DNA of 64,000 nt from Paecilomyces variotii (lineage: Eukaryota), in assembly GCA_004022145.1 (NCBI GenBank), contig RCNU01000002.1, one strand, 5' to 3'. A program made the position numbers and the translations under genes. Positions 6,533 through 31,300 of the stretch are shown here, one piece after another. The notes below the pieces were generated by a model that was not told the DNA's origin, did no database searches, and saw nothing but the letters and a program-made list of their open reading frames with translations. Position 1 is the stretch's first letter. Every line of letters begins with the position of its first letter.

Positions 6533-8804
6533 ATGAGGCCGATAGGGATATATGATTTTATCATCGTTGGCGGTTAGTACCATAAAGAATGAATATTTAT
6601 ATAGAGTAGTTATTTATTTTGTGCGATTGCTTATATACTCATGTGTGTTGCAGGTGGTACGGCTGGGCTTCTGGTTGCCGGTCGACTCGCTTCCAATCCA
6701 CGGGTCAAAGTACTTGTTATTGAAGCTGGAGCAGGGTAAATATTATCATCACACGTAGAGCCCGTACTGGCTAAGTGAAACAATATCTGACAGCAACTCT
6801 AGTGATCCAGAAAGTGTTGAGATGATAACTACACCCGCCCTGGCCTTCCATCTTCGCGAAACAGAATATGACTGGGCCTATGAAACTACATTGATTGACA
6901 AGCCTGGATACAAACGTGTGGAGGCAGCTAATACCCGCGGCAAAGTGCTTGGTGGAAGCAGCTGCTTGAATTATTATACTTGGTTGCGCGGCAGTGCCTC
7001 GACTTACGACGACTGGGTTGAGTTTGGCGGCGAAGCATGGAGCTGGAACAATTGCTCCCAGTCATTTATTACGGTGAGTTTATAACATCTTGCTTCTACT
7101 TTCCGAATTACTTTCCCTTCATCTTCAAAAAGTCATGCTATTTTCTCTGACAAAGCGATATATCGTAACAGCCTGTTACTTTCCATGACCGCCAAAGGAT
7201 ATTAGACAGTCCTCCTGTGAATGCTGCCGCGAATACAGAAGATTCACTACTCCAAATTGGCCCTGCAACTCCAATTCCTCTGGCAGAGCTACTCACGTCT
7301 GCATGGAAAAGCAGAGGGTACCCGGTCACGAATGATATATTCAATGGCAATGTGGATGGGATGACACATGTCATACGAACAATCCATAACGGCCAACGGT
7401 CGACGAGTAACTGTTTTATCAAGGGCTTACCGAACGTCGAGATCCTTTCAAAAAGTCATGCAGAACGTATTATTATCAAAGATGGTTCTGCCGAAGGAGT
7501 ATTGGTGCATACACCCCGAGGCCCGGAATACTATAAAGCGGACGCGGAGGTGGTTGTATCATGTGGAGTATTCGAGTCTCCCAAGTTGCTCATGCTATCC
7601 GGCGTCGGTCCACTTGATCACTTATCCTCGCACGGACTGCCTTGTATCGTCGACTCAGAACATGTCGGACAGCATCTGCAGGATCATCCCGTTGTGCCGC
7701 ATGTTTTTCAAGTCAAGGAGGAATATTCCATGGATAGGGTCTTGAGACCAGGGCCCGAACATGAACAGGCGCTGGAACTGTATCGGGAAACGAAGACTGG
7801 TCCGTTTTCAAGCGGGTTATTGGAAATGAGCGCTTTTGCAAGGATTGATCATAGACTGGAGACATGTAAGGAATGGAGACACGCTCGTGAAAGCGTTAGA
7901 GCAGATCCATTGGGGCCTGGAGGACAACCACATCTGGAGTTTGACTTCTTGGTAAGGATTCCCTTCTTTCCTTCCTTCAGTGCTTTTTGTTAACTATGAA
8001 CGAACTAACCTGGAAATACCTATCCAAGCCATGCTTTGCGCAACCATTCCAGCCACACATACCGTCTCCAGAAACTGGCGGTCATCTCACGGTCGTTGTA
8101 TCGCTTCTTCGACCACAATCCCGCGGAACAGTGAAGCTTCGATCAGGCAATGCCGCGGATCAGCCTGAGATATGTCTGAACTACCTCTCCGACCCAGTTG
8201 ATATTATTGGTCTTCGAGAAGGGATCCGATTCATCGATGAGGTCCTTCTGAAAGGCGACGAAACCAAAGACCTCATTATTGGAGAATATCCGAACTCCCT
8301 TCCCCGTGAATCCGATGAAGAAATGGATCGGGCCATTCACGAACGAGTTACAACTGGCTATCGTATGGTGCTATTTCATACATAATAATTACCAAACATT
8401 GCTAACTATGTCAACAGATCCATGTGGAACTTGCCGTATTGGGAAAACAATATCCCAAGGGGTGGTCGATCCCCATCTCCGTGTCCATGGTATCGATCGC
8501 CTGCGGGTGATTGACGCGTCGGTATTCCCTATTATTCCTGACGGTAGGATTCAAAATGCTGTATATATGGTTGCTGAGAAGGTGTGTTGGTCGTCGCTGA
8601 GAATGGAGTTGTATTGGCTGACATTGTCAGGGTGCGCACATGATCAAGCAAGATTATCAGCAATGGTGGCCACAACTACACCAGCCCTGGTCGCTCACAG
8701 GGACACTGAGAGGTTGCAAGGAGAGAGCTGAGAGGATATGGTCGTTATCATGGAAGATTGTAGGGGAGAATAGAGAGGTGTTGAGACAAGCTTGGAATGA
8801 ATAG
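6533..8804 (+). CDS. GMC oxidoreductase, formate-oxidase (FOD)-like, His/Arg active site
   Basis: Spliced gene of about 7 exons. Rossmann [62 protein letters not shown] (across an intron) and [27 protein letters not shown]. Collinear with Aspergillus oryzae formate oxidase as recalled. The last exon is read from the acceptor at 8630 to TAG 8804. Confidence 0.85.
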
Positions 8805-9195
8805 TAGGAATCGATATATTCTCTATTCTTGCAGTTTAATATGTAGATAGCATTGACTGAGAAGTGAGTCTCGTATATGTTCACTTAACGCTTGACATTT
8901 AAGTCTGGATATGATTTCTACATGTACATAAAACATGTCATGGCGGATTATCCAAGGATCAAATAGGCACGTCATGGTCCTTTGCCAGACTGTGCTTTTG
9001 AATTCACCAGCAGGTCCTCCAGAACATTGAAAACGAAAACAACAAATAGGAACCACGCGTAGTCATGCTATTCAATCCAAAAAAGATCCCGAAATTCTGT
9101 GCACCAACGCCTGTAAGGTAGTAACGCCTGGCCATAAATCGTATATACTATAAGTGGAAGAGGGCCACTGAAGAAGAATAATTCCCCTCTGGTGT

Positions 9196-11661
9196 TCATC
9201 CAATATAAGCCCCACCGGGCCCAAAGAAATTGTATGGCGGGTTCCCTGATCCGTTAATCGCATCATACAAGTCAAAGGCCGAGGGGGCGAAAGGAGATCT
9301 GTTATTGTACATATCGGCGTCAAGATCTGTCATGAACGCTGACATTTGAGTGGGTTCGGTGAGAACTGGCCAGGTACCCAGTGCTTCGCATGTTGGCACT
9401 GACACCTGGGTGATGTCCAGATTCGCTGCTGAGGAGGTTCCCGATTCTGGTGAGATGACATGCACATTCAGACCTGCTTTGAGTTCACCTATGAGGGCCT
9501 GTGGGAACACGTATTAGCTGAATTGACAAGCCTACGACTAGAAACAGGATTGTCGAAGGGACAGGACAAACCATCAGGATGTTTAAGCACTCCCGGAAGG
9601 GCTGGCTACTGCTGGTAATCTCAACCAGAACATTTGTCCCCTTTTCAGCAGCATCGAGTTTCTCATATGCTTTGGGATCTCGTCTGTTCGCTAATACGCT
9701 CATCAACAGCGTCATCACCGCCGTGAAAGTAACGGAAGGAAGAAACCAATAACAACCCGCAAGAAGACCTTGGGACTGTAACTGCACCGCAAGTGATACC
9801 TCTTGCATGGCCGCCTTGATGCATGCCATCGCACAGGCAAAGGAATGGATCTGCGAGCTATTCTCCCCGGAACTGGGTTTGCGAATATGATGCAAGAACG
9901 GAAGGTAGAGGGCCATTTGCACACGGCAATGCGCTATGAGGAGCAATATCTCGGCTCGTCTGAGGAGTAATTGAGCAAAATGCACAATAGTTCGAAACAG
10001 GATTGCAGCTTACCGTATATCATCATTCGGTACTCTCAGGTACTGCATGCGGCTAACTTCGGAAAACCAAGTTTCCAATTCCTTTTCGATGCTCAGTACC
10101 ACCTGGTAGTTGACCCGAAACGTGTTCTCGGATACGAAGGAATATTCGTCGACCGGGTAGATACACTTCAAGATCCGTTCCTGGATCATAGTAAGTCGAG
10201 TGTGTGCATTGGCAGCCGTCAATAATGCCTTTTCCTTAAGGAGGTTCTCTCGACTTTCTCGAGAATTGCTCCGCGATGAGAGATCGTCTTCCACTTCGCT
10301 GGGAAGATCCAGGTCCGTTATGTCCTCGTCCACTAGCCTCGGGAGACCGAGAATACAAGTCAGATAGACATCCAAGGTCCAAAGAGTCCAGAATGAACGC
10401 TTCAAAACTTCTTTGGCAATAGGGTCCTCCGTTCCTTCAATGCAGTGCGTCTCGCGCACTCGTCGCATCGCAGCAACACCAGCGCTGACAAAGTCGCGAC
10501 AGGTCAGAGCCATCGATCTCGACTGTAGGTAAATGGCGATAGTCAAAATCGCTTGTAGTGAGGAGATGTCTCTGCACACGGCGAAATCTAGTAATTGTCG
10601 AGCGAGTCTGAAATACTCCTCGCTGAACAGGGAAAAGAAAAGAATAAGAAATCAGCTATTTAGTTCATGATACATCGATCTTGGACAGTCAGCGCACCTT
10701 CGGTCTTCACCACCACTAAATAGCTCACCTAGCGCGCAAAGACTAATGAGAAGAGGCAGCTCCTTATCCTCAGTCACGCTTATTCCGTTTGCCGAGTCTT
10801 CGTAGAGTCGGTCGATGGCTCGATCGCAGGAGGGTCGATGAATGAACGTGAGAAGGCAGAATGCATTTTCCACAGCAATACTGACGAGCTCCTTTGCTCT
10901 GCTCTTCGTCGGTAGTACACCCGTGTCAGACATTATGCGGTTTCCCAGATGGAACGGAGAGATGGACCGATGCCACCCGAAGGCTTCCCGCAAATCCATC
11001 TGAAGCAATATTTGTTGTAGCGAGTTGGTGAGCATCTGACTGCAACGGTCTCTGATAGTACAGAGCAGGGCCAGACGTCCGCAATGGCTGTGGTAAGTAT
11101 TGCACCATGCTCCGCCTCCTTTCCGACACCCTCCTCGTTCAATCATTGTGTCCAGGAATATCCCGCGACCACCATCCCCATTTGCTAACGACCGGAGGGT
11201 TCCGCTGACTTCTTCGGTGCTCCATCGCGTGTTGCGAGTGACTTCCTCGAGCAGTTGTTCTGGGTTCTTCTCGCTGATCAGACGGTCCACGTCAATCGAG
11301 GGCCAGACGGTGCGGAAAATCGTCTTGAGGTAGAATAGTTGGGTTTCTAGATGTTCGATGTACTCTGGGCGCGAACGTCTCCTTGAAGATTCGTAATAGG
11401 AACAGTCTGCACGGGAGTACGCCTAGGTATTAGAAGAGAACAACAGCTGAACCTCGGAAAAGGGCAACAATTGGACTCACCGAGACCGCGTAGATCGCAT
11501 GGCCGGCACGGACTCTCACCATCGCACTTCCACTTCTTCAGTCGACACCGGTCGCATGCTCTTCTGACACGCTTCGCAACCGTTCGTTTTGCTTTGTCAG
11601 TGGGATCAAGGGCGGCGGATTGGTCTGCTGGCGTCGAGTCCTTCGATATCGCGCTCTGCAT
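9196..11661 (-). CDS. Zn(II)2Cys6 transcription factor with Fungal_trans domain, diverged Asg1-like
   Basis: CDRCRLKKWKCDGESPCRPCDLRGL-DC binuclear cluster. Middle-homology region RDISSLQA...KEVLKRSFWTLWTLDVYLTCILGLP and VQMALYLPFLH...SFACAMAC. Four GT-AG introns restore the frame. The start could lie further upstream (ATG 11792). Confidence 0.88.
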
Positions 11662-12688: not shown

Positions 12689-14248
12689 TCAACTGCTGCT
12701 GAACTCGACTATCAGGTCTGCAATGTCCCCGGGTCTCTCTTCGACCGGGTAATGACCTGCATTGCTGAGCCAGATGCCACTTGGGGCCCAGTCGACCATG
12801 AGGTCGGCGTTGATTGTCTGGGTGAGAATATGCTTGTAGTCTTTGAGCAGTGGATCATCCTCCCCAAACACCACGACCACTCTGAACGGTGCTTCACTGC
12901 CAGCGCTACGCCGCGCTTTCATATCTCCGTTGCGCCAGAACTGTCTCACTTCGTCTCCCCGCGCCGACAGGCTCGTCTGAGCATTGAGACTGCTGAAGTG
13001 GATTGGTCCACATAGTCCCTCACCCAGTTTCCAGAGCCATGTCTCGCGGAGGGAACGAAGCACGAACTCGGGCATGCCGGGTGCTATATGTGCGAAACGG
13101 AACACCCCTGCCTTGCTGTTGAGGGGAAAATCCCTGTAGGGCGCTTCATAGCCTTCGATCTCCTTCTGGGGGAGATGTGGAGACATGAAACGCATAACTC
13201 CAGACTCGGGCAAGTAGCCATCCATGATGCCGGTAGACATAAACCAGATTGCGTATAAAAGGCCATAATGCAGGCTCATGTCACTTGGACGAGGCGGCAG
13301 GAAGGCGTTGAGCAAGAACAGACCACGGCAAGCATTTGCTCGAAGATGCGGCAGGGTACAGAGCGCGATACATCTTGTGTGTAGTGAGCATGACATTAGC
13401 AGATGAGAAGGTGGAAACGGGTATCAAAGTTGACTCACCCACCCCAGTCATGTGCAACAAGTGTAGCATCCTCAAGGCCTGTAGATTCGAACAATTCGAT
13501 CAGAGTCCTCATGTGTAACTCGAAACTGATGCACGTCTGTCGAGTAATTTTGTCACTCCTGCCGTGACCAATCCAATCTAGGGCAAAGACCTCGTGTCCT
13601 TGTTCGACCAGTTTTGGCATGACCTGTATGATCGCAATTTACCAGGGGTTTAGAAAAAAAAAATAATAATTGCTTCGTTTGTCGCTTCCCTTCCAGGAGG
13701 CCTCGCTAAGAATGGGAGATGAAACTTACATTTCGCCAAATATAACTCCAGCTGGGATTTCCATGAAGAAGCACGATCGGGCTTTTTCTCTCGTATTCGC
13801 CATGAACGCCGTTATTCTCCGGTTTTATATGGATGTACCGGGCTGTTGCACCGCAAACCGATATCTCTTCAATATTATTTGCAAACGGCATGTCACTCAA
13901 TGAGCCTTTTCCGTTTCGATGCAATCTCAATACCACATCTTCGGGGAATACATAACGGGTGTTAAATTGTGACTGAGCCTGTAACTGTTCCTGTGCTCGG
14001 TACTTCTCCGTATCATTGATCAAAAGACGACAACCGGCAACGATCATAAAGCGAAAGGTATTGATGAAAATGCATGGGACCGATCGCAATACCACTCTCG
14101 TCATATAGAGAGGAAGTAGGAGTAAGGCCACTATCAAGCGAATAATGGTAAAGGACATCATGAACCTGCTGAGGCTGCCCCAGCGCTTCAGCAGCATGTC
14201 CTCGATTGACATGAGTGACTTCGTGCATTTATTGTATTGTAGTGACAT
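12689..14248 (-). CDS. Alpha/beta hydrolase, haloalkane dehalogenase-like, with hydrophobic N-terminal extension
   Basis: LLHGNPSWSYIWR, ALDWIGHGRSDK, nucleophile elbow VAHDWGG, acid motif GEDDPLL and base motif NAGHYPVEE. Three exons joined by GT-AG introns. Confidence 0.85.
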
Positions 14249-14692: not shown

Positions 14693-15612
14693 TTAACTGG
14701 AATAACTCGGTAAGGTTATGTAGTTCTCCATGGGACGGTTGAGAGTCGTTGAAGGTAGATATTTGATCGATGGATTAATCACCCATTCCTGGTGGTGTAT
14801 CTCAGGTTTCGAAGAAGCGTCATAGGCTGGGAGTTGCAAATGATCAATCACCACTTCAGATGTCCATGGACTATTACCTTCGCCCAAAAACGAAGCCCAT
14901 TTGGTAGTCTGGGCACCAACACATTGCCGATCTTCAGCATCGAAGCGGATTCTATCATCGCTGCGCCTTGATGAGAGCGCTGGGGCAGGATTGCGATCAA
15001 ATGCAAACTTCACACATCTCGTCGCAGACTTGACTAAGCGTGAAAAAGCTGTCCCAGATACTGATTTTTGAAGGAGTTCGGGAGAATTATAATTCCTGAC
15101 AGAGACGGCGCGAGGGCTATATCTGTCTTCTGGGAATACTTGGAGCTGTGTGACTTTCGACTGGACGGGAATCCGAGATGCCTTCTTCAAAGCAGGCTTC
15201 TTGGGAAGATTCGCTGATAATGTGGTATTCCATCGTGAGTGATGAGATGGACTTCTCGGTCGTGATGGAATGCTCCTTTGCCACGGGCCATATAGCCAGG
15301 TAATATCACTGTCCTTATCCCTGGATAATAGGCATCAGCGACTAACTTACTATGCCTCTTTTCATGTCTGATGACTACTTACCAATTGATCCTCCTGGGA
15401 GACACTGTGCCTGCAGGGCAATCTTTCTTGTTCCATGCTCTCCACAGAGCATTCTCTAACCTAACTGAACTTTCCAGAGCTATACGTTTCCTTCGAATAT
15501 ACCGCCTCGTTAACCAAAGATCTTCATCTGACCATGGATGAGCCAGGTAATCAGCGTTCAGCGAGGGCTCCTCCTCCAGTACACTGTCATCCCGGATGGA
15601 AGTTGGCATCAT
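14693..15612 (-). CDS. DUF1752 (Reg1/Hex2-like) putative PP1 regulatory protein, short and diverged
   Basis: DDSVLEEEPSLNADYLAHPWSDEDLW...RLENALWRAWNK...PRRINW|DKDSDITWLYGP (intron ~15383-15320), followed by KKPALKK and candidate RVxF-type motifs RCVKF and RIRF. Confidence 0.75.
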
Positions 15613-17156
15613 TCCTTGACGTGAAGCTGAAGAACGAAACGGAAAACAAACAGGTGAAGTAACCGGCTCAGATATAACTTCTGGAAATGAGTATTAATGA
15701 CAAGAAAACGGCAGGCTTATCTTCGTCGACATCCAGGGCATATCACCAGCTTCAAGTTGGACGGCCAATGGTAAGAAGGTCGAGTGTATCCGAAGGTTTA
15801 GGGCTTTTGTCGCTGACCATACACTATAGTTGAAGCAATGATAAAAAAATAATTGATGTCAATCTCTTCCCCAGTGTGGAGCGTGCCTCTCCATGGATGC
15901 CAATATAAGCGCTTACGGTCAGACAGCAAGCCAGCGGGGAACGTCCGGAAGCATCGCAATAATGACAAGCAGCCAGACCAATTACAATAGAATCCAGGTG
16001 ACGATATCCTCATCCGGTACGAGTTAACAGGTAAGTGGGAGAAAATGCACGGGAGATAGCAGCTTATTGTGTAAAGTGACGGCCGAGGTTCCGAATCCGG
16101 TTCACGTCACCTAGGATATCAGATCCGTCAGGATCGGCGGGCCGGAAAGTGGACATTCCTCGATCGACGATGCTTGCTTCCACGAAAGTTCTCGCTTATC
16201 TAGAACTGTCGCATAATTCATGGCACTTAGGTCAATGAATCGTCCGAAAAGAGACGACGTCTTCGAATCGTTTGCTGCATTTCGAGGTCATTGATGGCGC
16301 CCACTTTTTGTCCCACGATATGAAGTGCGAGAAACCCCAAGGAGAGTCCATTTAACCCTTGCAACATACTACAGAATGTGGCGTCAGCGCTGTGCCTATT
16401 CCACTACATCAGCAAGCCAGTTAGCATTGAGAATAAACGCCGTTTCCAAGGCGCCAACAGCCGAAACATCCGCGGAACTTTTTACCGTCATCTCGAGCCC
16501 TATGGTATTATCTCTTAAGAAAAATTCAGACAAATCAAGTTGCTGCGATCAACATAGCATCCATATCATACTACCATGCTTTCGAAGTGGGGTCTATCTC
16601 CAGGGCAAAGACGTATGGAAAAACAGACGAGCCCGAACAGCCAGAGATAGTGGAATCAGATATCATAGGGAAAACTACCTGCTTCTTCTACATATCTCCA
16701 TGTAGTCTTAGGTACTTCTACATTCAAGACGTATCTATATGATAATCTTGCCGGTTGTACCGCGGACTTTCGACACCAGAAATGGATCTAGCCACCATGC
16801 ATTAGACGTCTAGTATCACCATACGGCGGATATTCCACTTACTTTCGCATTGAGACAGGTGTCAATGCGTATTTCGACAGGTTATCTGACTGCCCGACAG
16901 TGGCATGAAAGTTTCGACTTCAGCACAACACGAATTCGGTGATCCAGTGTACTAAGTGTTGTACAAGGGTAAAATCAGGCCTGGACCGCAGTCCGTTGTT
17001 CAGGTTCATGCTGATACATTGCAAGGTTCTCCATTTCCAAGCTTGTTGGATCCACAGTCGAACGGTCCAGACTAAGGAACGAAGTACTTATTACTTCTAC
17101 TACGTGATTTCCGTCAGTGGGCGAGAGTGTACATCAACAATCTTTCTACGGCCAGC

Positions 17157-18397
17157 ATGCATCAGATGGAATCGATAGTTCAATTTTCGCAGCAAGAGAC
17201 AGGAATATCGGCGGGCACTTTCCTTGAAAAGGATCGAACAAACATTCACGCTGCCGAAATCCAGCATTATGTTCCAAGTCCGCTGTCCGAAGAAGAGCCC
17301 GAAACAATAGAGAAACTCCAAACCGGATACATGCTTTCCGATCTCAGGCAAGAACCTCTGCATTTCTCGGAGTATTGCAATTACTGATCTCTTCTAGCAA
17401 TATTGACAAGCGTCATGCTAGCCCCTTTGAATTGGCGGCACATATACTCCATGCTTTAAGTGCCATTCTGAGTCTTGCGGGAACGATTGTCTTCTGTCTA
17501 TGGCCACTTACTCTGCCGTTGATGCTATTTTATATCTTCTGGATACTGAAATCGAATGATGGATGTTCCGGAAACCTCTGGCGTCGAAGCGAGAACGTCC
17601 GTCGTTCACGCATCTTGAGGGCCTTTGCATCCTACTTTCCGTGCAAGCTGCGCCGCACCACTTTGCTATCTCCAAGACGCAAATATATATTCGCGTATCA
17701 TCCCCACGGCATAATCTGTCATGGTGCTTTCGCAGCATTTGCAACCGAGGCGTTAGGCTTTTCCAAGCTATTTCCAGGAATTACCAACGCACTCCTCACA
17801 CTGGACACAAACTTCAAGGTCCCATTCTATCGGGAGTATATCCTGTCCACCGGTCTCGGAGGAGTGTCGCGCAGCTCCTGCAGGCGCTTGCTATCATCTG
17901 GCGGCCACGACGGCAACGGAGCTGGCCGTGCAATAACAATTGCGGTTGGGGGAGCGCGCGAATCCCTCCTCGCGAAGCCAGGCACAATGCGAATCATCAT
18001 TCGAGGACGCAAAGGCTTTGTGAAGCTCGCTGTAGAACAAGGGGCCGACCTCGTTCCTGTTCTCGGGTTCGGTGAGAACGACCTATATGACCAAGTCGAA
18101 GCCGATCACTATCCTTCAATCAAGCGACTGCAATCAATACTGAAGCAGTCCTTGGGGTGGACATTGCCGATATTCTACGGACGCAGTATTTTGGGTGGCG
18201 GTCGCGGCTTTTTGCCTTATCAGAAGCCCGTTAATGTAGTTGTTGGGGAGCCAGTGAACGTTGTGCGTCAAGAAGAACCTGATCCTGAGTATGTTGATCA
18301 TGTCCATCAAGTCTACATGGATGAGTTACGACGCCTGTGGGACAAATGGAAGGATATATATGCGAAGGACAGAAAGGGAGAATTGGAGTTTCTGTGA
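17157..18397 (+). CDS. dga1: Diacylglycerol O-acyltransferase type 2 (DGAT2/DAGAT family)
   Basis: YFP, YHPHG, GGARE, RKGFVKLA and LVPVLGFGENDLY motifs, plus N-terminal TM segments. The 5' exon joins in frame only through a GC-AG intron at 17348-17397. Possibly a secondary paralogue. Confidence 0.92.
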
Positions 18398-19368: not shown

Positions 19369-21196
19369 ATGGGCCTCTTAAACTATATTATATCGTTGGT
19401 CTACCAAGTGATCCAGTTTTTTGTTTCAAAGTTCTTCTCCCCTACTCCTCCAGCACCTCGGAGAAGGATCAGTAATGCGCGCCGTGTTGCTGTTATTGGC
19501 GCAGGGATTACTGGTGTTTCGTCTGCTGCACATTGTGTTGGTCATGGATTCGAGGTCACAATCTTTGAAGCAAAGGGGAGAGATCATCTGGGGGGTATCT
19601 GGAGTGTGAGTTCATCTGAAGAATTATTATAGGGATCAAGAGCTAATGGGATATCGTTTACAGCAAGTAAACCCGACATCATCTTTACAAATCCATAGCC
19701 TCATGTACCGCTTCCATCCTTCTGTGAGGTTCAAGAATGACTATCCCCACCGCGACGCCATCATCAGAGAGGTCACGGATTTGTGGAAGAGATATAGACT
19801 TGATGAGCGGACTGAGTTCGAGGTTCCGGTCCAATCTGCCTGGAAAGATGAAAAGACTGGGAGATGGATTGTCCAAGATCCTTCCTATGGCTATTTTGAC
19901 GGCGTTATCGCTGCTGTCGGTACTTGCGGAGACCCTAAAGCACCACATATACCTGGCCAAGAGAATTTTTCAGGCCAGATCTACCACTCCTCTCAACTCG
20001 CGGGTAAGGATGTGAGAGGCAAAAACGTCATTGTCGTCGGAGGTGGTTCTAGTGCTGTTGAGGCCGTTGAGTTTGCAGTACAAAATGGCGCAGCGCAGAC
20101 GACAATATTGGCTAGGGTATGTATATTATCATGACCTGTCAAATGGAGAGAACTTTCAAGCGCTGACATGTCACCATAGTCTAATAAATGGGTCATACCA
20201 CGAAACCCACTTATTGACGCTCTGCTGTCTCTTAACATTTTTGGCGAAGAAACCGAGTTTGCTTGGGTGCCCGAAATACTGTTGAAGCAATTCTTCTACC
20301 GAGATTTGGAAGACCTGATCCCCACTGGAAGAGGCCTGTACACAGATACGCCCATGGTCAACAATGACATCTTGGAAGAGGTGCGTAAAGGGAAGGTTAA
20401 GTGGCTGCGCGGTGACATCAAAGAGTTCGCGGAATCGGGACTCGTTTTCAACCATCGCGCCAAAGGTGTTCCTAAAGGCGGACCCGGAGAGGAAATTACC
20501 GTGAAGGGCGATATCTGCATCATGGCTACAGGTTTTCATAGACCCAGTCTGGGATTTCTGCCAGGTGATGCCTTCAAGGAACCTTACAAGCCGCCGAACT
20601 GGTTTCTCCAAACCTTTCCAGTTGGCCATACAGATATTTGTGCCAACAACTGCACGTACATCAATGGGATCGGCACCGTGGGCAATATTCACATAGGCCT
20701 GTATACGAGGTTGCTTTTGATATTTCTGGTGGATCCAAAGACACGTCCATCGACACCCTGGATGCGCATCTGGGTCGACTGGACGCGGATGTGCAAACGG
20801 GCTGCTCCAGGTGGCGCACTCGAGTTCTTTACCTACAGCGAACTCATATGGTGGATAATATTCAATATATTCTCGAACCCGTGGAGATGGAGATGGGTCT
20901 TCTTTGTCCTATGGGGATGGGGAAGTATCCCAGCCAATAATGCTGGAAGGGAAAATTTGATCATCAATGGCAGCACCAAATCCGGGTCCAACGGCCAAGG
21001 ATCTAAGCCTGGTAGCTCTGATAATGAGAAGCATTCCGAAACCGACAACAAGCCAACCTATTCCGCTGCTCTGGCATCGAATATGCCGAAAGGGCAACCA
21101 AGGATGAAGAATCTGAAAGAAGAGCCGCCATTCGCGGATACTCAGAGTCAGGAAGGTCGTGAAGAGAAGCAAGAAGCAGCAAAGAAAGACGCCTAA
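19369..21196 (+). CDS. Flavin-containing monooxygenase (FMO/BVMO-like)
   Basis: Two Rossmann motifs (VIGAGITG, VVGGGSSA), GGIWS, FMO-type motif FSGQIYHSSQL and ATGF. Three exons. Hydrophobic N- and C-terminal segments. Confidence 0.9.
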
Positions 21197-21595: not shown

Positions 21596-22651
21596 CTAAA
21601 CATATTGTCGTATTTCGGGCTGGATCTCGGTCCAGCGATCCATAAGTTCATCCCACAATCTCCGCTGGAGCTCAACGCCCCTCTTGCTGCAAAGGATATA
21701 TGGTGGTGCACGTATCTCCGAATCACTCAAATATTGACCGTGTGACTCTCTCCCTACACAGGCAGCATGCACTAACGTTCTGCTTCCAACCTCCGCGGTG
21801 CGCGCTAAAAGGGTCTTGATTATATAGGTAGGCGTGGGCAACTCCCGGAGAAGATTCGAGTGGCATAGTCCGGGATTGACATAATTGACCACGACTTCGT
21901 CGTGGTCTTGATGTCTCGCAAAATACTCGCGGACTATCATAGCAGCCATGACTTTACTGATATGGTACCTCCTCAACATGTAGGCTGTCCTCTTCTCTCG
22001 AAGCGCCCCCAGGATATTGGGTGCTTCCAGCTCCGTGAGTGAGGTATGGAAGATGACCTCGCTGCAGACGAACGACAAATGAGCAACGGTCCCATGATTT
22101 CGTGATGTTTTCTTCAGGCTCGGCAACAACATAAAGGCGAGGAGGAAAGTGTTGATCACATTGACAGTTATAGTGGTCTCGTCCCTATCGACTAGTCTGA
22201 AAGTCGGAGTTGCCACAGCAGCGTTACATACAACTGCATCTAATCTGTCAAGACAATTTGCCCTGTTCACAAAGTTCTTGACAGAGTCGGATGAACTAAG
22301 CTCCAGACCCCAGCACTCGACAACATCGTGGCGCCCAGTGATTGATTCAATTATCCTTCGCGCCTGCTTGCCTTTCTCGTCATCTCGTGCAGTGATGATT
22401 ACTCGCTGGGCCCCTAATCGCACGAAGTGTGTTGCTGCTTCCAATCCAATCCCTCCACTGGAACCGGTAACAACTACTGTTTTCCCAGTCCAGTAGATGA
22501 TGGGATAAGGAGGCTCGACGAATAATTGTCTGTAGAGGAACAAAAGACCAAAATAAAAACTGCTGAAGTATGAGAAGATCCAAGAAAGGAGCGTATTTGG
22601 TTCAGGACCATGCCCCAGGAACTTGGTAGACATTGTGAATGGATAGATCAT
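21596..22651 (-). CDS. Short-chain dehydrogenase/reductase (retinol-dehydrogenase-like) with N-terminal membrane anchor
   Basis: VVVTGSSGGIG, VCNAA, YHISK (YxxxK) and VNPGLC. The start is uncertain. A possible extra 5' exon at 22905-22833 would splice in frame via intron 22832-22726. Confidence 0.9.
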   Translation of the reverse strand: MIYPFTMSTKFLGHGPEPNTLLSWIFSYFSSFYFGLLFLYRQLFVEPPYPIIYWTGKTVVVTGSSGGIGLEAATHFVRLGAQRVIITARDDEKGKQARRIIESITGRHDVVECWGLELSSSDSVKNFVNRANCLDRLDAVVCNAAVATPTFRLVDRDETTITVNVINTFLLAFMLLPSLKKTSRNHGTVAHLSFVCSEVIFHTSLTELEAPNILGALREKRTAYMLRRYHISKVMAAMIVREYFARHQDHDEVVVNYVNPGLCHSNLLRELPTPTYIIKTLLARTAEVGSRTLVHAACVGRESHGQYLSDSEIRAPPYILCSKRGVELQRRLWDELMDRWTEIQPEIRQYV

Positions 22652-23173
22652 ATAAGAAATGATTTTGCCCAGGACAGACTGTCTCAAAGATGTAGACAGT
22701 TTCAAGTCGATATTCGTACCAAAGCCTGGGGGTTCAGCAATCGATGCTTTACATTTTATCGCAGCGATAGTGACTATCTACCCTTGACCCTGGCATTGGT
22801 TACTGACGAATACTATCGTGCCTATATCATACCTTCGGAAGAGCATCCGAAGTTCGAGAAAATGTTGGTTACCAACTTGGAAGGCTTCAAATATGATGTC
22901 AGCATGATCTTGTCCCGTCTGTACTTGTTTTCCTCTGGCGGGCTGAAGCAGATTCTCCAGCAAGATAATGATATTTGTCGCCATGCGTGGACAGAGCGCA
23001 CTGAGGCAAAGGCCTATAACTCCGCCAGGAACCCGCTAGGGAGTCTCCGGGACTTTCTGCATTAGACAGTAGTGTAGCTCCCTAGTGACCTTGCCTCCGA
23101 ATAATACAGTCCCTCAAGTTTAGTTTCTATTTGTTGATTCACTCATATCGCACTGTAGCTATTTCATCCGATG

Positions 23174-25988
23174 CTAATAGCGCTGAAATCTCTTCCGACA
23201 GACTTTAGCAGCCTGTGAGTGCCGCCCCTTGTCACATTTATAGAGGATCGATGGCCCACAATGCACATCATCCCTGCAATAACAATCCATCGAGCTTGCA
23301 CAACCAGGGTAATAGCTATATTCAGACTCCTCCATAACCTTACGAAACAGCGGCGGTACAAAAATTCCTCGAGGGTCCTGTTGACGTGCCGTGTCCAGGA
23401 AGTTTTCCAGTTCAGGATACTTGTCTTTCATAGGACATTCAGGGTGAAGAAAGGCTCGTTGTGGATTCTTGCCCCAGTGCGCTCGGGCGCCGTATTTACA
23501 GAATGTAATCTGCTCTATCTCGTCCAAAATGTCTTGGTGGTGGGCAGGAAGACCTGCAAGGCCCTTCGAGACAAGCATGTCTATGTAGACCGTGTCTCTC
23601 CCGTAGGCCATGTCGAGTGGGGCGTCCGAACCTTTTCCAAACCGCATGGCGAAACCTAGGAGCGATGGCAGACATCCTTGATGAGGGATAAGATCAGTGA
23701 TCGCGCGGACTTCTCGAATCCAGTCTCCGAGGTACCGGACATCCATATCAAACTCAATCAGAATCTGCACTTGATTCTGCCAGTAGCATCCCGAGAGACG
23801 ACCCCTACAGCTAGAGCCCCCTAGGCGATGTGGCCACCCGATAATGCTTTGATTAAATATCTTCCAGTGTCCAATCTCACCTTCCTTGTACCAGAATGGA
23901 GGAGGACGCTGCTCAAAAAAGCAAATTCCCCAGTCGGTGGGCAGCGGCGTGAAGTTGATCTGATCGATAGCGAGCGAGAACTTTCCACCAATAGCAGCCC
24001 ACGGACGGTGTTCGAAGAAGCTGTGAAAAGCATCCCCTGGGGTATCAGGAGGCACAGATGTATGCCATCGGACAATGGCCGTACGTGCATTGGGATACCA
24101 CATCACTCGTGCAAACGAGAGTTCCCTCACAAGCATGGCAATTCTTTCTGGAAGTCGTCGATCTGATTCCTTAACCACCTGTAGTAAGAAATGTTAATAA
24201 AGCATTGTGGGAAATAGGTACTTTTTGCGACTCACAGTGGTGTTAAGCTTGTACATTTCCGTCCCTTGGATCTCAATCTCAGTGACAATCCCTAAAAGAC
24301 CCATAGTCCCTATCCACCTTGTTGGATTATCTTCTTCGCGCACTTCGCCTCGACCGTCCACGTAGGTTATTCGTGATATTGCGTGTCCGAACGCCGATGG
24401 TCTTTCGGTGGAACTGCCATGGGCGCCCGTTAAGAACATTCCCCCGACTGTAAGTCCCGTAAAGATCGGTATATAGTCCGAAGGCATGCTCATTCCCAAT
24501 TCGTGCATAGTGTCCATGAGGTGGTCCATCTCCATTGACGGCTGTACAGTGATCGTTTTCCGCCCTTTGTCCCATGATAGCACGTCACTCATGCGAGACA
24601 TATCAAGTTGCATAGCACAATCCCCAGCTTTGACATTAACGCATGGAAACTTCACAGTACTATGGTAGAGTTGCCTTGAGGCACGAATGCTGAGCTGATC
24701 GCTACCTTCTTTGGATCCTAGAGCGATCGGGCATCTGTCAAGGCCACTCTTAACGATCGATGCAACATCTATGGTGGTTTCCGGCATATAAAGTTCTCCG
24801 CCGTGAGGTGGACATTTTCGAGGATACCATGCGCTCTTGATGACATTAGGTAGATCCCCCCGGCCAAATGTAATAGACGGTGCTCCCATCCAGTCGTACA
24901 AATAGATCAACAGGAGTCCCACCAATGTCATGATAAAAGTGAGACGAAACAGGGCCTTGAAAGCATTCCCCACCAGCCTGATAAGCAAAGGCGGTTTCCG
25001 CTTTTTTGATCCCCAGAAACCATCGCCACCGAGACCCCAGCCTTGGGACCATCCTGTTCCTCGAGACCGTTCCTGGGCTATTCTCCAGAAGAGTGACCCC
25101 TGCGAGTATCTTCCTGTAAGCGAAAGTAAATACTAAGAAGGCGATTTTCGTTTCAAAGCATATAACCTACATCATATAGCTGGCGGAGATCTTCCTTCTG
25201 GACTTTGCCATTTCTCTGGAGCAGTATCCAAGTGGTTCCGAATTCGAAGAAAGCAGCAGACCACTATTCAACGTCAGCCAGCTTTTCACGGTTATCAATT
25301 GCGTGATAGAAAACAACATACCCCATAAGGATCGACGGCACATCGGTTACCACTCATCAGATTAAATATCTGCTTAAGAGAGAGATCGTTGGCACCAGGG
25401 CTGCTGAATTTCGCGAACAGATTCTCAAAACTTTGAGCTACAAACCGCCCTTCGTGGTCATAGACGTTGCTATCTGATGCATGCTAGTCCGATAAAAGAA
25501 ACCGTAGCAAGTCAGCGCATCAGCTTCTGGTATCAACACGACATAAGAATAGACTTTTGTAACACCTACTTTGGCTTTATGAATACTGTCCAGGTAGACT
25601 CGGAAGAATGGGTCTGGAATCACGCTATGCGCGAGGCGTGTCGGATAGGAGAAACCACCATTGATGACCATTATCGCGAATATAGAAAAGGGAATATTAA
25701 AGCCGAGCTCTCGGAAGCCTCGATAGGTATCCAAGGGCCAAATGATGCCATCTCCATCCCGGTCCCAGAAAATCACATGTTGCTGTAACACGCTCTACAC
25801 GTTTCATCTAGTATTAGCGAGTGTGCTGCAAGGTATCAAGGCACGGCAGATTCCTGATGACATACATAATCTTTGAACTTCTCGTAGTGAGGTCCTTTAG
25901 AACCGCAAGGGTTCTCATTCGACACCGCAAGATTGGCTCGAGCGACTCCTGCTTTAGGTACTCCTCTTGGTGCATCAATTTCCATCAT
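23174..25988 (-). CDS. Caleosin/peroxygenase fused to a plant-type L-gulonolactone-oxidase-like FAD oxidase (predicted 823 aa)
   Basis: Six exons, all phase 0 with GT-AG introns: 25988-25866, 25794-25570, 25483-25322, 25263-25171, 25099-24236, 24178-23174. Caleosin motifs SVLQQHVIFWDRDGDG, YPT...PDPFFR, KAKHASDS, EGRF and GSLFW...GWSQGWGLGGDG continue without a stop into a TM helix. Then come FAD_binding_4 motifs (YHSTVKFPC, GLTVGGMFLTGAHGSS), an ALO-type motif (KYGARAHWGKN) and a Cys-rich tail. Confidence 0.85.
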
Positions 25989-26680
25989 TAGATGTCTTGG
26001 ACTGAAAGTAGATGCGACGCAATACACGGTTTCTGTCTGCGCTATATAGGGTAGAATGAATGGCACTGTAACAAACTCACTCTCCATGTGCACTAGCCCC
26101 CTTTAGAGCAGATATCAAGTTTCTCTCCTTGAAATCTGGTCTGTTGTAAGCTTACATAGCCTCGGGTCCGATCTGGCGGCAGAAAACTTGCAAGGTAGCA
26201 ATGCGGATGGGGATCCGAGATGTCGTTGAGCATTGTTGATATCATGTTGGGGAATAAGTATCGACTTTCTGATAAAACATTTGATTTCACGTGTCACCAC
26301 CTTCCGAGATTTCCACAGACCCCTGCACTTTCACTCGAAAAGATCCAGATCAGCTGCAACATAGCCAGGGAAATCCATCTCAACAAAGCCACCCTGCAAA
26401 TGCCTCTGGGTTTCCTTACCAATAATGTCCCCATGGTTTCGAACTGTCCCACCAAATATCGTATCGAGACTACATAATGTAGCCCACTGGACTTGCATTC
26501 TCTAAATACGGTCCCGGATTGCTGTCCAGGTCTTCCGCACTGAATTCGACGCCCAAAAGGAGTACGTATCTATCTAAATGGGAGAAACGCTTAATATTGC
26601 TGTGAGAAGTTAACATGCATTTAGACAGAGAACCTTGCCAATAATCCCCTTGCCTTCGGGTAATTACTTCCTTTTCCACT

Positions 26681-27723
26681 ATGCAGAACGGCAATTCAGC
26701 CTTCGAAATCGCAGTTCCCAAAGCGACAGTAACACAGTCCAGACTGTTAGCAGTTGATATCGACAACCACGTTAATCTTCCTACAGGGGCGCGCGGAAAC
26801 CTGGGACCATCTATAGATAGTCCGCGAGGTTCCCCAAAAGACTCGCATAAGTACGAAGATTATGTGAGTTCTGGACTGGTGTATCCTGCTTTTCCCCCTT
26901 CAAGACTGAAACGTCACTAACATTACCAATTGCGAGGTTAGACACTTCTGCAGCAACACGTACTCTTCTGGGACCGGGATAACGATGGCCAGATTACACC
27001 CATCGATACATATATCGGCTTTAGGGAACTAGGGTTTAATATCATATTCTCTCTCCTGGCAGTTCTGGTCATAAATCTCAATTTTTCATATCCGACCAGG
27101 CTTGCGTATTCGTGGTTCCCTGATCCTTTCTTCAGAGTCTATGTGCCTAGTATCCACAAGGCAAAGGTTAGCGAGAATACACCACGACAAAGCACTTTTT
27201 TTTAACTCTCGATTTGCTCCTCAGCACGGTTCAGACAGCGGCGCAATTGATAACGAGGGACGTTTCGTTTCGCAGGCATTTGAGAATATCTTTGCCAAGT
27301 ACGACAGGGAAAATCGCGGTTGCTTGAGTCTTGCCGACATCTTTCGCATGATGAAAGGGCAGAGAGTCGCTGCTGACCCGTTTGGTGTAAGTGACCGACT
27401 ACGTTATGTCCTGAGGACCACCCCCTCAACCAAAAGAAAAAAAAAAAATTAAAAAGACACATACCATATAGTGGGGAGCAGCCTTCTTCGAATGGGGGAC
27501 AACCTGGCTATTGCTTCAGAAAGGTGGAATGGTCTACAAGGAAGACCTGAGACAGGTCTATGACGTGAGTAGTAAGGTCTTTCTATCCAATTCGTAACTA
27601 ATTGCTTTCCTGTAGGGGTCACTATTCTGGAAGATTCGCGACAAGCGATTAAAAGCAGAAGGTTGGCGCCAGGGTTTTGGCCTAGGAGGTGATGGATTTA
27701 TTGGATCCGTTAAGGTTACCTAG
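26681..27723 (+). CDS. Caleosin / peroxygenase (canonical, 256 aa)
   Basis: Exons 26681-26863, 26942-27166, 27225-27386, 27472-27564, 27616-27723. TLLQQHVLFWDRDNDG (His + EF-hand), proline knot YPTRLAYSWFPDPFF, KAKHGSDSG, EGRF, DPFGW and GSLFWKI...GLGGDGFIGSVKVT*. Confidence 0.95.
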
Positions 27724-28233
27724 GAAGGGAGAGAGAGGCAGGAGGGTGGATGCAGTGGCTTTTGGGGTTATTGCTGGGACACGAAAACACTAAGGTGGCA
27801 TTTATTCCTCCGCATCGCGAACCAGACATATCGGACTTGTTGCAACAAAGCTAGCCATCCTATTCATGGATAACGCATGGACACACTCAGATAATCTTTG
27901 AGTTTTTTGATTTGGACCTATTTTTCTGGGGTAATTCTTTATCAGTAGAAGTTTGAAACGGGAGAGGAGCGAGAACTTCTTGGTTGGGAATGTCCTGCCA
28001 TAGTAGACCACAAGTCCTTGAACAATATATGAACTTAGGGAACTCGATAATGTTCAGAAATACAAAACTTCTATCACTGGAACTTTCGGCAGGAAACCAA
28101 ACACGTCATGTATACCTCACGTGCAGCTGTACCCAGTGAGACAACTTAAGGCATTTATTGAAATATTGTGCCTCTGGAAACTCTCTAGCTGATATTCTCT
28201 CCAAACAGAAAGACTTTATTAGACTTTGAGACT

Positions 28234-29507
28234 ATGGAAAAGTCCACTATGCTAGACTTTGCGGTTTGCGTTCCCAATAGTTCTGTGACACAAAAGCGCC
28301 TCCCTGCCATTTACGTTGAGAATGATGCTAGACGTCGGAACTTGCAAGACACTGCTGAAATCGAGGCATTCAATACGCTACCCAAAGTTGCACGGGATGT
28401 AGGTCTGCTAGCTTTATTCTGAAGATAACAGTTCTCTGACTATTGAGCCAGAGCTCATTTCAACGTTATTTGGCGTTTTTCGATCGAGATGATGATAGTC
28501 GTGTCTCACTGTTCGATAGCTTCGTGGCCTTTCATGATCTCGGTTTTAACACTCTTTTCTCTTTTTTGATTGCAACTTCGATGCACATGGCTATGTCATT
28601 ACCGACTAGTCTGGCCACGCGAGGCCGAATTGATCCATTTCTGGCCATATATTTCGGGACGGTCGTAAAAGCCTTGGTCCGCATCTTCTTTACCTATCTA
28701 CGTGTTTTATTTCAGGCTAAAGTTGTGGAAGTAGCTGCTCCAACTTTGGGGGCATACCTTGTTCGATGCCGAAGGTCGATTCCAAGAAGAGGTCTTTGAG
28801 AGGCTATTCTCCAAGAGTAGCAAAGAAGAGCCAGACTATCTCACGTTGAGCGAGGCCTATGACTTTGTTAAACGGCGGAGAGAGCCTTCGAGTCCTATAG
28901 GTGTATGTTCCTACCTACCAATTTTTAACATGATTGAATATTTACTCTTTCAATAGTGGATCCTGGTCATTGCTGAATGGCATGTCATATGCCTTCGGCA
29001 ACGGAATAGGTTACTGAGCCGCACCGGTTTGCGTCAGATATATGATGTTAGATGGCCCATTGTGATTTATAGAGCTCTTTCCGGGGACACTGACTGTGAA
29101 GAATCAAGGGATCCGTGCTCTGGGAACTTCGGAAGCAACAAAGATCTCATCACAGATATTGGCCCGATTACCATGCTATTTCGCATCCTATAGAGGACCT
29201 TACGAACCCTGCCTATTGGCCGCCCGTGAGTTCAAGCTTTTGTATCGGTATACAATGCTATACTATTTTCGAGTTATTAACGCTTGCCTAGGCGCTTCAG
29301 TCTGCGATGGACAAGACTCTCGCTTACATTATACTTGCTCTTTTTGCAGCCTCGTTCGCCGTTCCGTTATTTGCATATACCTGTATTGCTGGAGACCCCG
29401 GAAAAGAGTTAAAGACCATACTTGCGGTCATGACATCTAGTTTCTGTCTTACATCCTGGAGATTTGGTAACTATCTGCAGGCGGAGAGACAACGACTACG
29501 TTCTTAG
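28234..29507 (+). CDS. Divergent caleosin-like protein lacking both conserved heme His, with extra C-terminal TM extension (326 aa)
   Basis: Exons 28234-28398, 28452-28676, 28735-28902, 28957-29046, 29109-29225, 29292-29507. Intron positions match the other two caleosins. FQRYLAFFDRDDD, LPT...IDPF, FDAEGRF, LRQIYD|GSVLW. The last exon is less certain. Confidence 0.8.
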
Positions 29508-30142
29508 GTTTCCGTAGGCACTCTTCCATTCTTTCTGGCATCTAGAAGCTATAACCTTTTGTAAATAAGCATCAGACAAGACCCAATATGAATGCAGGCG
29601 TTCCTCTTGAAGAAGATAGGCCAGAGATCCGGTCGCTTATGACATGGATGTTTAGTAGACCCATTCTTACCTACGAGTTCAATCTATAATAGCTCGAGTC
29701 TTCCAGTTACCTAGGTAGCTTACTTTCCCTATGTCAATAACAGTTGTTGATGTAGTGATCGGGACGTCTTCCGAACGTCAAATGCCTGACGTCACTGTGA
29801 GATTCCCTAGCAGCCGATCTCTGTTAATTCATCAAGATTCAGAAATACACTAGTTTATATTCTTTTCCATAAGTATCGGCGGGGCATTCAAATCCAGCTG
29901 AACTCTATGAGAGGCTCGTTCTCGATGCGATATTTTCGCGTTGTTTAGCGTGGAGTGGCAATAATATTGACCTGCACATATGATGGTAGCAGGCATTGAG
30001 TAAGGTGACAGGAACAGCATTTAACCTGATCAGTAAATTCCTTATAAGTCTACGTAAGGATCATGGATCAAATTTCAGCTTCTTGGAATCTACGATTCTT
30101 TGTTAGTAGATCGTTCATTTTCCCTCTCCGTGGTAGGACACT

Positions 30143-31300
30143 ATGGGCACCTATCATCCACCTTTATCGCTTGTCATATTAGGGACAATCTTTATTGGTC
30201 TGGGGCTTATAGCTTCTATTGTAATCGGGCTTGATATACTCCTCCGCCGAGGATGGAGGTCAATGATGGGCATAATGTAAGTTTACCTCCATGTTGTGGT
30301 CTCCGGCTATATAAATTCTTGGTAAGGAGTGCTTCGGATAACTGACATTGTTCTTGACCGTAGGATTCCAGTGTACCTCCTCAATTCGTTATATCTTGCA
30401 CCAATCACGTTATGGGTATACTTCAGTTATGGCCGGCCAACAAAACCAGAGAGACCCTCTAAGTCAACCGGTGAGCATCAACATGGTCATTGCAAGTACG
30501 CGCTGGTTGAGATCTCCATAAATCCTACCTATAATCCAAAGCTGATTGCTCCTTGCGGTATAGTCCTGGCGGAAATGGTCAACTAAACCATCATGACCAC
30601 ATGGAGAATAAAGAACTTGAACACGGACACGACCAGAGCCATGGCCAGCACCACAGTGAGGTCCACGGGGAAGGTCACCACCACATGGGCGGCTCATCAC
30701 GGCCTATGTTCGCAACCACAACTGTCGCAGTGTGCCATTGCGGAGCAGGATGTCTCTTGGGAGATATCGTTGGCGAATGGCTCGTTTACGGGACGGATGC
30801 CAAAATCAATGGCCACCGACTATGGGTCGCTTTCCTAGTTGGTACGTATTTCTAGGCTCCTACGTATCTTGCTCTACGCATGAAATCTGATACGCCTGCG
30901 CCTGAAGATTACGGATTCGCTCTTCTTTTTGGAATTGTATTTCAATATTTCTCCATCGCCCCGATGTCAGGCGATTATGGTCCCGTGACGATATGGCGGT
31001 CGATAAAAGCCGATTTTCTGTCGTTGACTTCGTTCCAGATCGGTCTGTACGGGTGGATGGCAATATACCAGATTCCAATATGGAACTTTAGGTTGGAAGT
31101 GAGCAATGTTGTTTACTGGTGGATGATGCAGGTATGCTCCCTCGCAATTAGCCGGATATGTTTTGAATAGCCTTGCCCACCGTCAGAGAGTATCCTATCT
31201 GATATGCTTCTTTCAGATCGGCATGTTCGCGGGCCATTGGACAGCCGTACCGATGAATTGGCTCTTGATTAAATTCAAAGTAAAAGAGCCATGCGCGTGA
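30143..31300 (+). CDS. DUF4396-family integral membrane protein with His-rich loop
   Basis: N-terminal TMs, HHDH...HGQHH...GHHHM loop, VCHCGAGCLLGDIVGE, FQYFSIAPM, KADFLSLTSFQIGLYGWM and MMQIGM...WLLIKFKVKEPCA*. Five exons. Confidence 0.85.

Follow-up and report, generated by a model that had tools for sequence, protein, structure and literature searches.

A gene core with a caleosin-flavoenzyme fusion in Paecilomyces variotii points to an undescribed lipid-oxidation module

In plants, the peroxygenase cascade pairs a peroxygenase with an epoxide hydrolase, and an alpha-dioxygenase and a caleosin make up a lipid-droplet pathway. Among fungi, gene clusters that lack a backbone synthase and carry an internal Zn2Cys6 regulator form a general class, for which the gliotoxin cluster serves as a regulatory model. 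Fungal caleosins were described in a 2018 survey, whose main text does not contain the word 'fusion', as mostly single-copy proteins of 25-30 kDa (PMC6309107), and the A. flavus caleosin affects sporulation, droplets and aflatoxin export (PMC5808235). The partners of fungal caleosins and the source of their oxidant are poorly defined. Here we describe a 64,000-nucleotide stretch of contig RCNU01000002.1 from the P. variotii assembly GCA_004022145.1 (the whole of which we call the window), where a run of eleven contiguous genes between positions 6533 and 31300 includes a caleosin fused to a flavoenzyme of the plant GULLO-like type. The evidence points to an undescribed lipid-oxidation module, with a core of lipid-oxidising genes kept together in other fungi. 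No published description of the locus or of the fusion was found in a search of mainly the open literature, and the supplements of the 2018 survey, which cover 344 fungal caleosins, could include fused ones (PMC6309107).

When 65 open frames across the window were scanned against Pfam, the eleven families and their order agreed with those listed in an earlier note on this DNA: a GMC flavoenzyme, a Zn2Cys6 transcription factor (TF), an alpha/beta hydrolase, a DUF1752 protein, DGAT2, a flavin monooxygenase (FMO), a short-chain dehydrogenase (SDR), the fusion, caleosin-2, caleosin-3 and a DUF4396 protein. Open spliced gene models were obtained for all 11 genes. The fusion gene (23174..25988, minus strand), a core gene with 5 introns, encodes 823 amino acids carrying the Pfam domains Caleosin, FAD_binding_4, ALO and GULLO2-like_3rd. 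A single open exon (25099-24233) runs without a stop from the caleosin tail through a basic linker and a hydrophobic segment (residues 250-268, mean 2.18) into the flavin adenine dinucleotide (FAD) domain, which bears out the caleosin-oxidase fusion of the earlier note. The same tail-linker-helix-oxidase frame is open in the protein P0002 (60% over 647 columns), whose cluster includes Exophiala sideris, and, with the same linker, in Logan protein P0027 and contig L001; in the latter a caleosin exon is followed by an intron, the open frame and, after KLNTT, a second intron, both introns lying where they do in the window. Indeed, the 15 listed of the 30 members of the fusion cluster comprise 11 fused proteins of 679-822 amino acids and 4 halves from two split annotations. 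A C-terminal piece of the fusion is present in E. xenobiotica, and a metagenome scan yielded, from 242 pattern matches, 1 locus of 1.2 kb that bears on the fusion but includes no neighbouring genes. The end of P. cinerascens protein P0026 resembles another reading frame of the window's linker, and its sequence suggests the same gene, mis-spliced in annotation. Evidence for a fusion transcript comes as length arithmetic on RNA contig ends, with no displayed joint: in run X1 the match of record 4 to the oxidase exon starts at letter 257 of the record, the preceding 256 letters equalling caleosin exons 3 and 4 plus one base, and record 23 of run X6 extends 151 letters beyond the same exon edge. 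Given the open exon and its conservation in other lineages, we rejected the possibility that the fusion is an annotation artefact.

The oxidase half is of the plant GULLO-like type, with FAD_binding_4, ALO and GULLO2-like_3rd (33 bits against a cut-off of 27); its TIGR01677 score, 169 bits, lies below the curated cut-off of 383. In structure alignment its fold is closest to L-galactonolactone dehydrogenase (GLDH) and alditol oxidase, at 15-19% identity to characterised lactone oxidoreductases. The nearest Atlas clusters of this half are mostly from Streptophyta and Chlorophyta, and transfer from green algae is a possible origin for it, a lead given the few taxon labels. A conserved His in an HS motif and a Pro aligned with Ala113 of GLDH would, by rules that we take to hold, fit an oxidase, yet the plant relative P0162 has both and AtGulLO5 is a dehydrogenase. 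With respect to topology, 8 of the 16 cysteines in the oxidase half do not vary among 12 relatives (11 or 12 letters per column), the half carries three N-glycosylation sequons, and the stand-alone relatives P0021, P0040 and P0071 begin with signal-like segments; the helix, which spans 239-270 in an AlphaFold model of mean pLDDT 74 with a low-confidence caleosin half, is preceded by basic residues. From these features we infer a bilayer-spanning protein with a disulfide-rich lumenal oxidase, for which the endoplasmic reticulum (ER) or secretory pathway would be a better fit than a droplet monolayer. Lumen-facing haem regions were predicted for fungal caleosins in the family survey (PMC6309107). 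Among the plant relatives, AtGulLO5 is a strict dehydrogenase and makes ascorbate from L-gulonolactone, and MsGulLO is a weak oxidase with which no ascorbate was made (PMC6077269). In the oxidase tree the fungal fused oxidases formed one starred clade, their nearest relatives were mostly unlabelled secreted proteins, and Dunaliella salina fell in the wider group; no named stand-alone fungal oxidase was seen among the labelled rows, 1 of the 16 non-fused relatives being labelled.

The fused caleosin (caleosin-1; PF05042, E 9e-70) and caleosin-2 (26681..27723, plus strand) both scored above the Pfam cut-off, the latter being a canonical core gene of 256 amino acids that is divergent from the fusion and is confirmed by RNA. 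Caleosin/peroxygenases are recognised by an EF-hand, a lipid-binding segment and two haem-coordinating His (PMC6309107). QQH, DxDxDG and KAKH are present in both proteins, both haem His are kept, and the hydrophobic segments reach 1.59 and 2.07, so that by sequence both qualify as caleosin/peroxygenases. Caleosin-3 (28234..29507, plus strand; 326 amino acids in a model whose last four introns are predicted only) has QRY in place of its paralogues' QQH and is missing the KAKH histidine, consistent with its description in the earlier note as His-less. By Pfam and intron positions it is a caleosin homologue, and on these residues not a peroxygenase; it is 32% identical to its neighbours, has four intron positions in common with them and gains a C-terminal hydrophobic helix in the model, and its best match among the compared proteins is at 33-39%. 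For comparison, a redundant set of 238 caleosin-like proteins has the first His pattern in 214 and the second in 225.

In a caleosin tree of 45 rows chosen from the matches, with caleosin-3 left out as a long branch, the three fused-type caleosins formed one clade (93/85, not starred). The tree holding caleosins 1 and 2 together was rejected (approximately unbiased test, p 0.014, the pair having been named after a quick tree was viewed). A recent tandem duplication was therefore discarded, and the pair is old. Caleosins 1 and 2 are about 60% identical to their counterparts in Aspergillus and Penicillium. Elsewhere in its genome P. variotii carries another caleosin, P0463, in common with P. lecythidis. 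Some further caleosins were encountered along the way. An identical protein, P0171, occurs in Penicillium palitans and P. chrysogenum/rubens, with three near-identical copies in one P. chrysogenum assembly, a pattern that recent transfer, or amplification of a region, in food moulds may explain. In Aspergillus section Fumigati another caleosin lies beside a PP2C gene in A. hiratsukae, A. felis and A. pseudoviridinutans, and in A. turcosus the two are merged with a dual-specificity phosphatase. The A. turcosus protein (P0448; caleosin, PP2C and DSPc, 879 amino acids) was considered as a further fusion and set aside, since it looks like a merged annotation whose parts are annotated separately in relatives.

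Linkage in other fungi was judged for the FMO, the fused caleosin and caleosin-2 by the order of locus tags and accessions, using the best 120 of 716 FMO matches and the best 120 of 1,944 caleosin matches. The FMO (19369..21196, plus strand), a core gene encoding 568 amino acids, was assigned by Pfam (FMO-like), RNA and a homologue tree. In T. atroroseus, UA08_06811 (an FMO, 57% over 585 columns) and UA08_06812 (a caleosin) are consecutive on one contig, an adjacency with a chance of about 2e-4 per genome if 9,500 genes are assumed. UA08_06812 is the best non-Paecilomyces match to caleosin-2 (72%) among the matches listed and its sister in the tree (98/79), and UA08_06811 falls with the window's FMO in the same starred clade of 13 rows, whose named members are all Eurotiales, in a tree of 38 rows chosen from the matches. 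Similarly, in P. cinerascens KAJ5195552.1, which the tree places as sister to the fused caleosin (100/96), is next in order to KAJ5195553.1 of the caleosin-2 clade (95/84). With these two adjacencies and the recurring fusion, orthologues of the FMO, fused caleosin and caleosin-2 core are not simply scattered in relatives, although linkage extends to two gene pairs only. No FMO was found among the matches listed for the caleosin-2-clade carriers T. stipitatus, T. verruculosus, A. japonicus and P. cinerascens. None of the best 120 of the 716 FMO matches in this widespread fungal family is a characterised enzyme. Located inside the core is the SDR gene (21596..22651, minus strand), a single exon for 351 amino acids with the Pfam domain adh_short; it keeps YxxxK, has a weak N-terminal hydrophobic segment, and is closest in NCBIfam to PRK06197, PRK06196 and LPOR, all below cut-off, which we take to be retinol-dehydrogenase-type SDRs.

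RNA contigs were compared over 11450-31400, a range that excludes the GMC gene and most of the TF gene. All ten genes in that stretch had RNA cover, with run X1 covering 30 of 30 bins, and splicing was seen for 8 of them (at least 15 joints, in the hydrolase, DUF1752, DGAT2, FMO, fusion, caleosin-2 and caleosin-3 genes, together with loose ends in the TF gene). For example, all 4 coding introns and a 5' untranslated-region (UTR) intron of caleosin-2 were present in RNA, the first intron of caleosin-3 was spliced in runs X1 and X6, and the first intron of the TF gene gave loose ends at 11481 in three runs. The SDR was covered in X1 on the fusion's contig, and the DUF4396 gene had cover in bins with no joint among the rows listed. 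Because of this cover and the confirmed introns, we conclude that the genes are transcribed and not silent. Gaps were given no weight, as holes prove nothing: the SDR is uncovered in X5 and little covered in X6, and X2 has a hole over 17.4-25.4 kb. Run X2, whose contigs are unspliced, is probably DNA, and its word share (0.56) is higher than its aligned contigs account for. Five runs under the same species label contained next to none of the words and were likewise given no weight. The eight runs on record as RNA with this stretch are all food or food-fermentation metatranscriptomes, from three studies. One X1 contig (21587-25483) spans the fusion and the downstream same-strand SDR, a possible read-through or overlap of UTRs, and contigs of X5 and X6 end between these genes, at 23119 and 23143. 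RNA loose ends at 19688-19722 in three runs trace to an FMO paralogue elsewhere in the genome.

We have middling confidence in the following reading: an old, patchily kept Eurotiales accessory module of the FMO, the fusion, caleosin-2 and probably the SDR and caleosin-3, lying beside other accessory genes and working by the mechanism proposed here. The fusion would sit in the ER membrane with its flavin domain facing the lumen, where that domain would oxidise a sugar, polyol or aldonolactone and pass the electrons to O2, yielding hydrogen peroxide (H2O2). With this peroxide, or with a lipid hydroperoxide, the attached caleosin would epoxidise or hydroxylate fatty acyl chains or some other hydrophobic substrate. 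On droplets caleosin-2 would catalyse the same reactions, tailoring of the product would fall to the FMO and SDR, caleosin-3 would act as a non-catalytic scaffold, and DGAT2 may store the product in triacylglycerol. The interpretation in the earlier note is partly supported: it holds for a caleosin-centred core of three to five genes, the other genes being candidate members. We regard as doubtful a fuller form, an undescribed TF-controlled oxylipin or lipid-detoxification cluster around a self-sufficient peroxygenase, in which a caleosin with its own H2O2-generating green-lineage-type flavoenzyme would be joined by a droplet caleosin, a pseudo-enzyme caleosin, the FMO, the SDR and a dedicated DGAT2, and which cluster finders that look for a backbone would not see.

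Several points weigh against the module as we read it. One public annotation divides the fusion into P0010 and P0014, the annotations of a further P. variotii strain and of an E. sideris strain do likewise, and the oxidase half of P. cinerascens P0026 was not recovered. Supply of H2O2 by the oxidase is not assured, because the plant members are a dehydrogenase or a weak oxidase. The RNA data, being assembled contigs, hold no co-expression information, and contig depth cannot rank the genes. Each pairwise linkage comes from one outside genome, and from tag order rather than read DNA. Among the matches listed, the FMO clade and some caleosin are adjacent in 1 of the 6 outside species that have both; they are unlinked in P. 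lecythidis (006054/008028), P. variotii No. 5, Penicillium sp. IBT 35674x (FMO 012329 or 007165, caleosin 012465), A. hiratsukae (000679 and 004720) and A. turcosus, and neither caleosin-2 nor the fusion was found among the matches listed for the sister species P. lecythidis. The caleosins of those five species belong to another clade than caleosin-2, however, and we therefore take these FMO-only species to represent patchy absence rather than broken linkage.

DGAT2 (17157..18397, plus strand; 396 amino acids) has an intact DAGAT domain (E 4e-83), with RNA joints, a 5'-UTR intron and one GC-AG coding intron, and keeps YFP, HPHG and RxGFxxLA, which we take to be the DGAT2 motifs. The non-canonical GC donor belongs to the intron at 17348-17397, at whose 3' edge other strains differ. 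The DUF4396 gene (30143..31300, plus strand), a flanking gene assigned by Pfam, model and RNA cover, encodes a membrane protein of 283-285 amino acids with a His-rich loop. Among 42 patterns scanned in nine upstream regions, CGG-N8-CCG stood out post hoc: it was present in 4 of the 9 regions, where shuffled sequences gave a mean of 0.69 (family-wise p 0.025 across 39 dyad patterns). The sites lie in the DUF1752/DGAT2 divergent region (16080..16093), upstream of the SDR within a 7-base perfect inverted repeat (22836..22849), in the fusion/caleosin-2 divergent promoter (26204..26217) and upstream of the DUF4396 gene (29760..29773), and the four regions would serve up to six genes: DUF1752, DGAT2, SDR, fusion, caleosin-2 and DUF4396. 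All four read TCGGA-N7-CCG on one strand, and two more such sites occur in the window, one in coding sequence at 24467 and one at 49386-49400 between the TauD and HsbA genes. CGG-N8-CCG was absent upstream of the FMO (the best-linked gene) and of the hydrolase, TF, GMC and caleosin-3 genes, and nine of its 13 sites in the window fall outside the four regions. Shared 7-9-mers across the upstream regions did not beat shuffles, and the motifs of FarA (CCTCGG), CRE, BrlA, AbaA, VosA, WetA and STRE showed no clear enrichment there (CCTCGG in 4 of 9 regions, p 0.09). A Zn2Cys6 site with the CGG-N8-CCG spacing is on record from the gliA promoter (PMC4006717). We treat the motif as a weak hint of co-regulation and, for DGAT2 and DUF4396, as a lead towards membership of the core.

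The GMC gene (6533..8804, plus strand; a flanking gene, about 614 amino acids, 6 introns, C-terminal end uncertain) finds A. oryzae formate oxidase as its best PDB match (E 8e-63, the next family at 2e-19) and keeps Arg87, Ser94, Leu97-Asn98-Tyr99, Thr101 and the C-terminal His/Arg pair of the published diagnostic list (PMC11236828), in agreement with the FOD-like oxidase that had been read from the letters. It is likely a one-carbon enzyme that would also produce H2O2 and, because the formate-oxidase residues are kept, probably not a lipid enzyme. The A. nidulans gmcA paper, in the part available, mentions neither formate oxidase nor clustering (PMC3390393), and no publication joining formate oxidase with Paecilomyces and formaldehyde was found in the literature search. 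Next to it lie the TF gene (9196..11661, minus strand; Zn2Cys6 and Fungal_trans, 737 amino acids in the model), a candidate regulator whose exon drew only Fungal_trans clusters in an Atlas search, and the hydrolase gene (12689..14248, minus strand; 462 amino acids, hydrophobic N-terminus, both introns in RNA contigs). The hydrolase has the Asp-nucleophile motif HDWGG with HGNP and could be a haloalkane dehalogenase or an epoxide hydrolase; single exons score 22-28 bits with PRK00870 and PRK03592, far short of their cut-offs of 241-265, and exon 3 had no PDB match. The DUF1752 gene (14693..15612, minus strand; intron in three RNA runs) encodes a soluble protein of 285 amino acids with the domain PF08550, GATA_AreA-like, which we take to be the former DUF1752. 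It presumably resembles the N-terminus of Reg1, as a truncated Reg1-type PP1 regulatory subunit, and an RxVxF-like motif occurs at residue 178.

Hydrophobic anchors, which the earlier note had ascribed to most of the enzymes, were scored as 19-residue stretches with a Kyte-Doolittle mean of 1.6 or more. Eight genes reach this value (hydrolase, DGAT2, FMO, SDR, fusion, caleosin-2, caleosin-3 and DUF4396), but the segments of DGAT2 and caleosin-2 are typical of their families and the GMC protein has no anchor, its sole stretch above threshold being the FAD-binding motif; the claim was partly overstated. As the same note had it, families of polyketide synthases, nonribosomal peptide synthetases and terpene synthases were unmatched among the 65 open frames selected for scanning, so that the backbone synthase of a classical biosynthetic gene cluster is lacking in them; lipoxygenase, Ppo and alpha-dioxygenase were likewise absent from the window. 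The left neighbour is a velvet gene by Pfam. The right edge is less clean than the housekeeping block envisaged earlier, as Pam17, AIG1, a second Zn2Cys6 gene, GH72, a kinase, TauD and HsbA (all by Pfam) come before the eIF2A-domain, ZNF598 and MutS genes. Just 2 direct and 2 inverted repeat pairs of low identity were detected, with no sign in this comparison of a mobile-element boundary, and Rfam gave no match. After DUF4396, a two-exon gene at 32212-33591 (about 450 amino acids) had no Pfam match, and its exon 2 looks RRM-like by eye.

An unlikely alternative in our estimation, and essentially what the earlier note had proposed, is that all or nearly all eleven genes form one Zn2Cys6 regulon that builds droplets and oxidises or detoxifies their cargo, with both oxidases giving H2O2 and the hydrolase opening epoxides. 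The dyad in 4 of 9 upstream regions, its gliA precedent (PMC4006717) and the X1 RNA cover of all ten genes compared are in keeping with such a regulon. In biocatalysis, formate oxidase has reportedly been proposed as an H2O2 source for peroxide-dependent enzymes. However, the motif is post hoc, misses five of the genes and recurs nine times elsewhere in the window, and shared words do no better than shuffles. The linkage evidence is confined to the FMO and the caleosins, with none for the left half, where the GMC protein keeps formate-oxidase residues and has no anchor, and the fusion's helix and disulfide-rich domain would be unsuited to a droplet monolayer. What stands of the earlier proposal is the linked core of FMO, fusion and caleosin-2, with the motif weakly in favour; the formate-oxidase-like GMC gene and a fusion topology that fits an ER bilayer speak against the remainder.

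It is improbable, in turn, that the run is an accessory-gene neighbourhood inherited by descent and eroded in each lineage, sharing a place and not a pathway, with the fusion as the only functional unit. Microsynteny is common among Eurotiales, mixed accessory genes continue for 20 kb further right, FMO and caleosin paralogues occur elsewhere in the genome, and, among the matches listed, 5 of the 6 checkable outside species have the FMO without a linked caleosin. Those five caleosins, though, are not of the caleosin-2 clade, which makes for absence rather than broken linkage, and the caleosins at the locus, three in number and each from a different clade, do not stem from a recent duplication; two of them form a pair in P. 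cinerascens as well. Most fungi have a single caleosin (PMC6309107). We consider it very unlikely that the core is an antioxidant unit, in which the flavin domain would make an ascorbate-like reductant from an aldonolactone and the caleosins would remove lipid hydroperoxides, protecting spore lipid. In fold, the flavin domain comes nearest to L-galactonolactone dehydrogenase and alditol oxidase, and a date-palm caleosin is said to be a fatty-acid hydroperoxide reductase; identity to characterised lactone oxidoreductases is just 15-19%, however, and a fusion would be less obviously needed. Ascorbate formation by AtGulLO5 from L-gulonolactone offers a parallel, but MsGulLO made none (PMC6077269).

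The conserved fusion names a candidate partner for fungal caleosins, and a single protein is enough to test it. The plant GULLO-like family, of disputed activity, could gain a functional context from it, and a self-supplied peroxygenase, if true, would be of interest to biocatalysis. The wider block, if co-regulated, would represent a lipid cluster missed by standard mining.

Each described system shares part of this architecture. The GMC protein, like A. oryzae formate oxidase (PDB 3q9t, 5zu2, 5zu3), retains the C-terminal Arg and the residues on which formation of 8-formyl-FAD is taken to depend, but has Tyr instead of Phe before the catalytic His and a longer predicted C-terminus. As in backbone-free fungal clusters, genes for redox enzymes adjoin one another at the locus, a Zn2Cys6 gene is present and there is a candidate CGG-dyad motif, although the motif is in 4 of 9 upstream regions only and no transporter gene was identified at the locus. 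The plant peroxygenase and alpha-dioxygenase-caleosin pathways likewise combine a caleosin with a candidate peroxide-supplying enzyme, and here an Asp-nucleophile hydrolase and DGAT2 lie nearby; in contrast to those pathways, lipoxygenase, Ppo and alpha-dioxygenase are missing from the window, a sugar-type flavoenzyme is the candidate source of peroxide, and the genes are physically clustered. The oxidase half has the three-domain architecture, conserved cysteines and secretory-type N-terminal segment of the plant GULLO-like flavoproteins (AtGulLO2/5, Mucuna MsGulLO; TIGR01677, PF22906), yet it is found in a fungal host, fused behind a caleosin, and scores 169 against 383 for TIGR01677. Finally, caleosins 1 and 2 resemble fungal CLO/PXG proteins (PF05042; A. 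flavus AfPXG) in their EF-hand, lipid-binding segment and both haem His, and differ from them in that three copies stand at one locus with a fourth elsewhere, one being His-less and one fused to a flavoenzyme.

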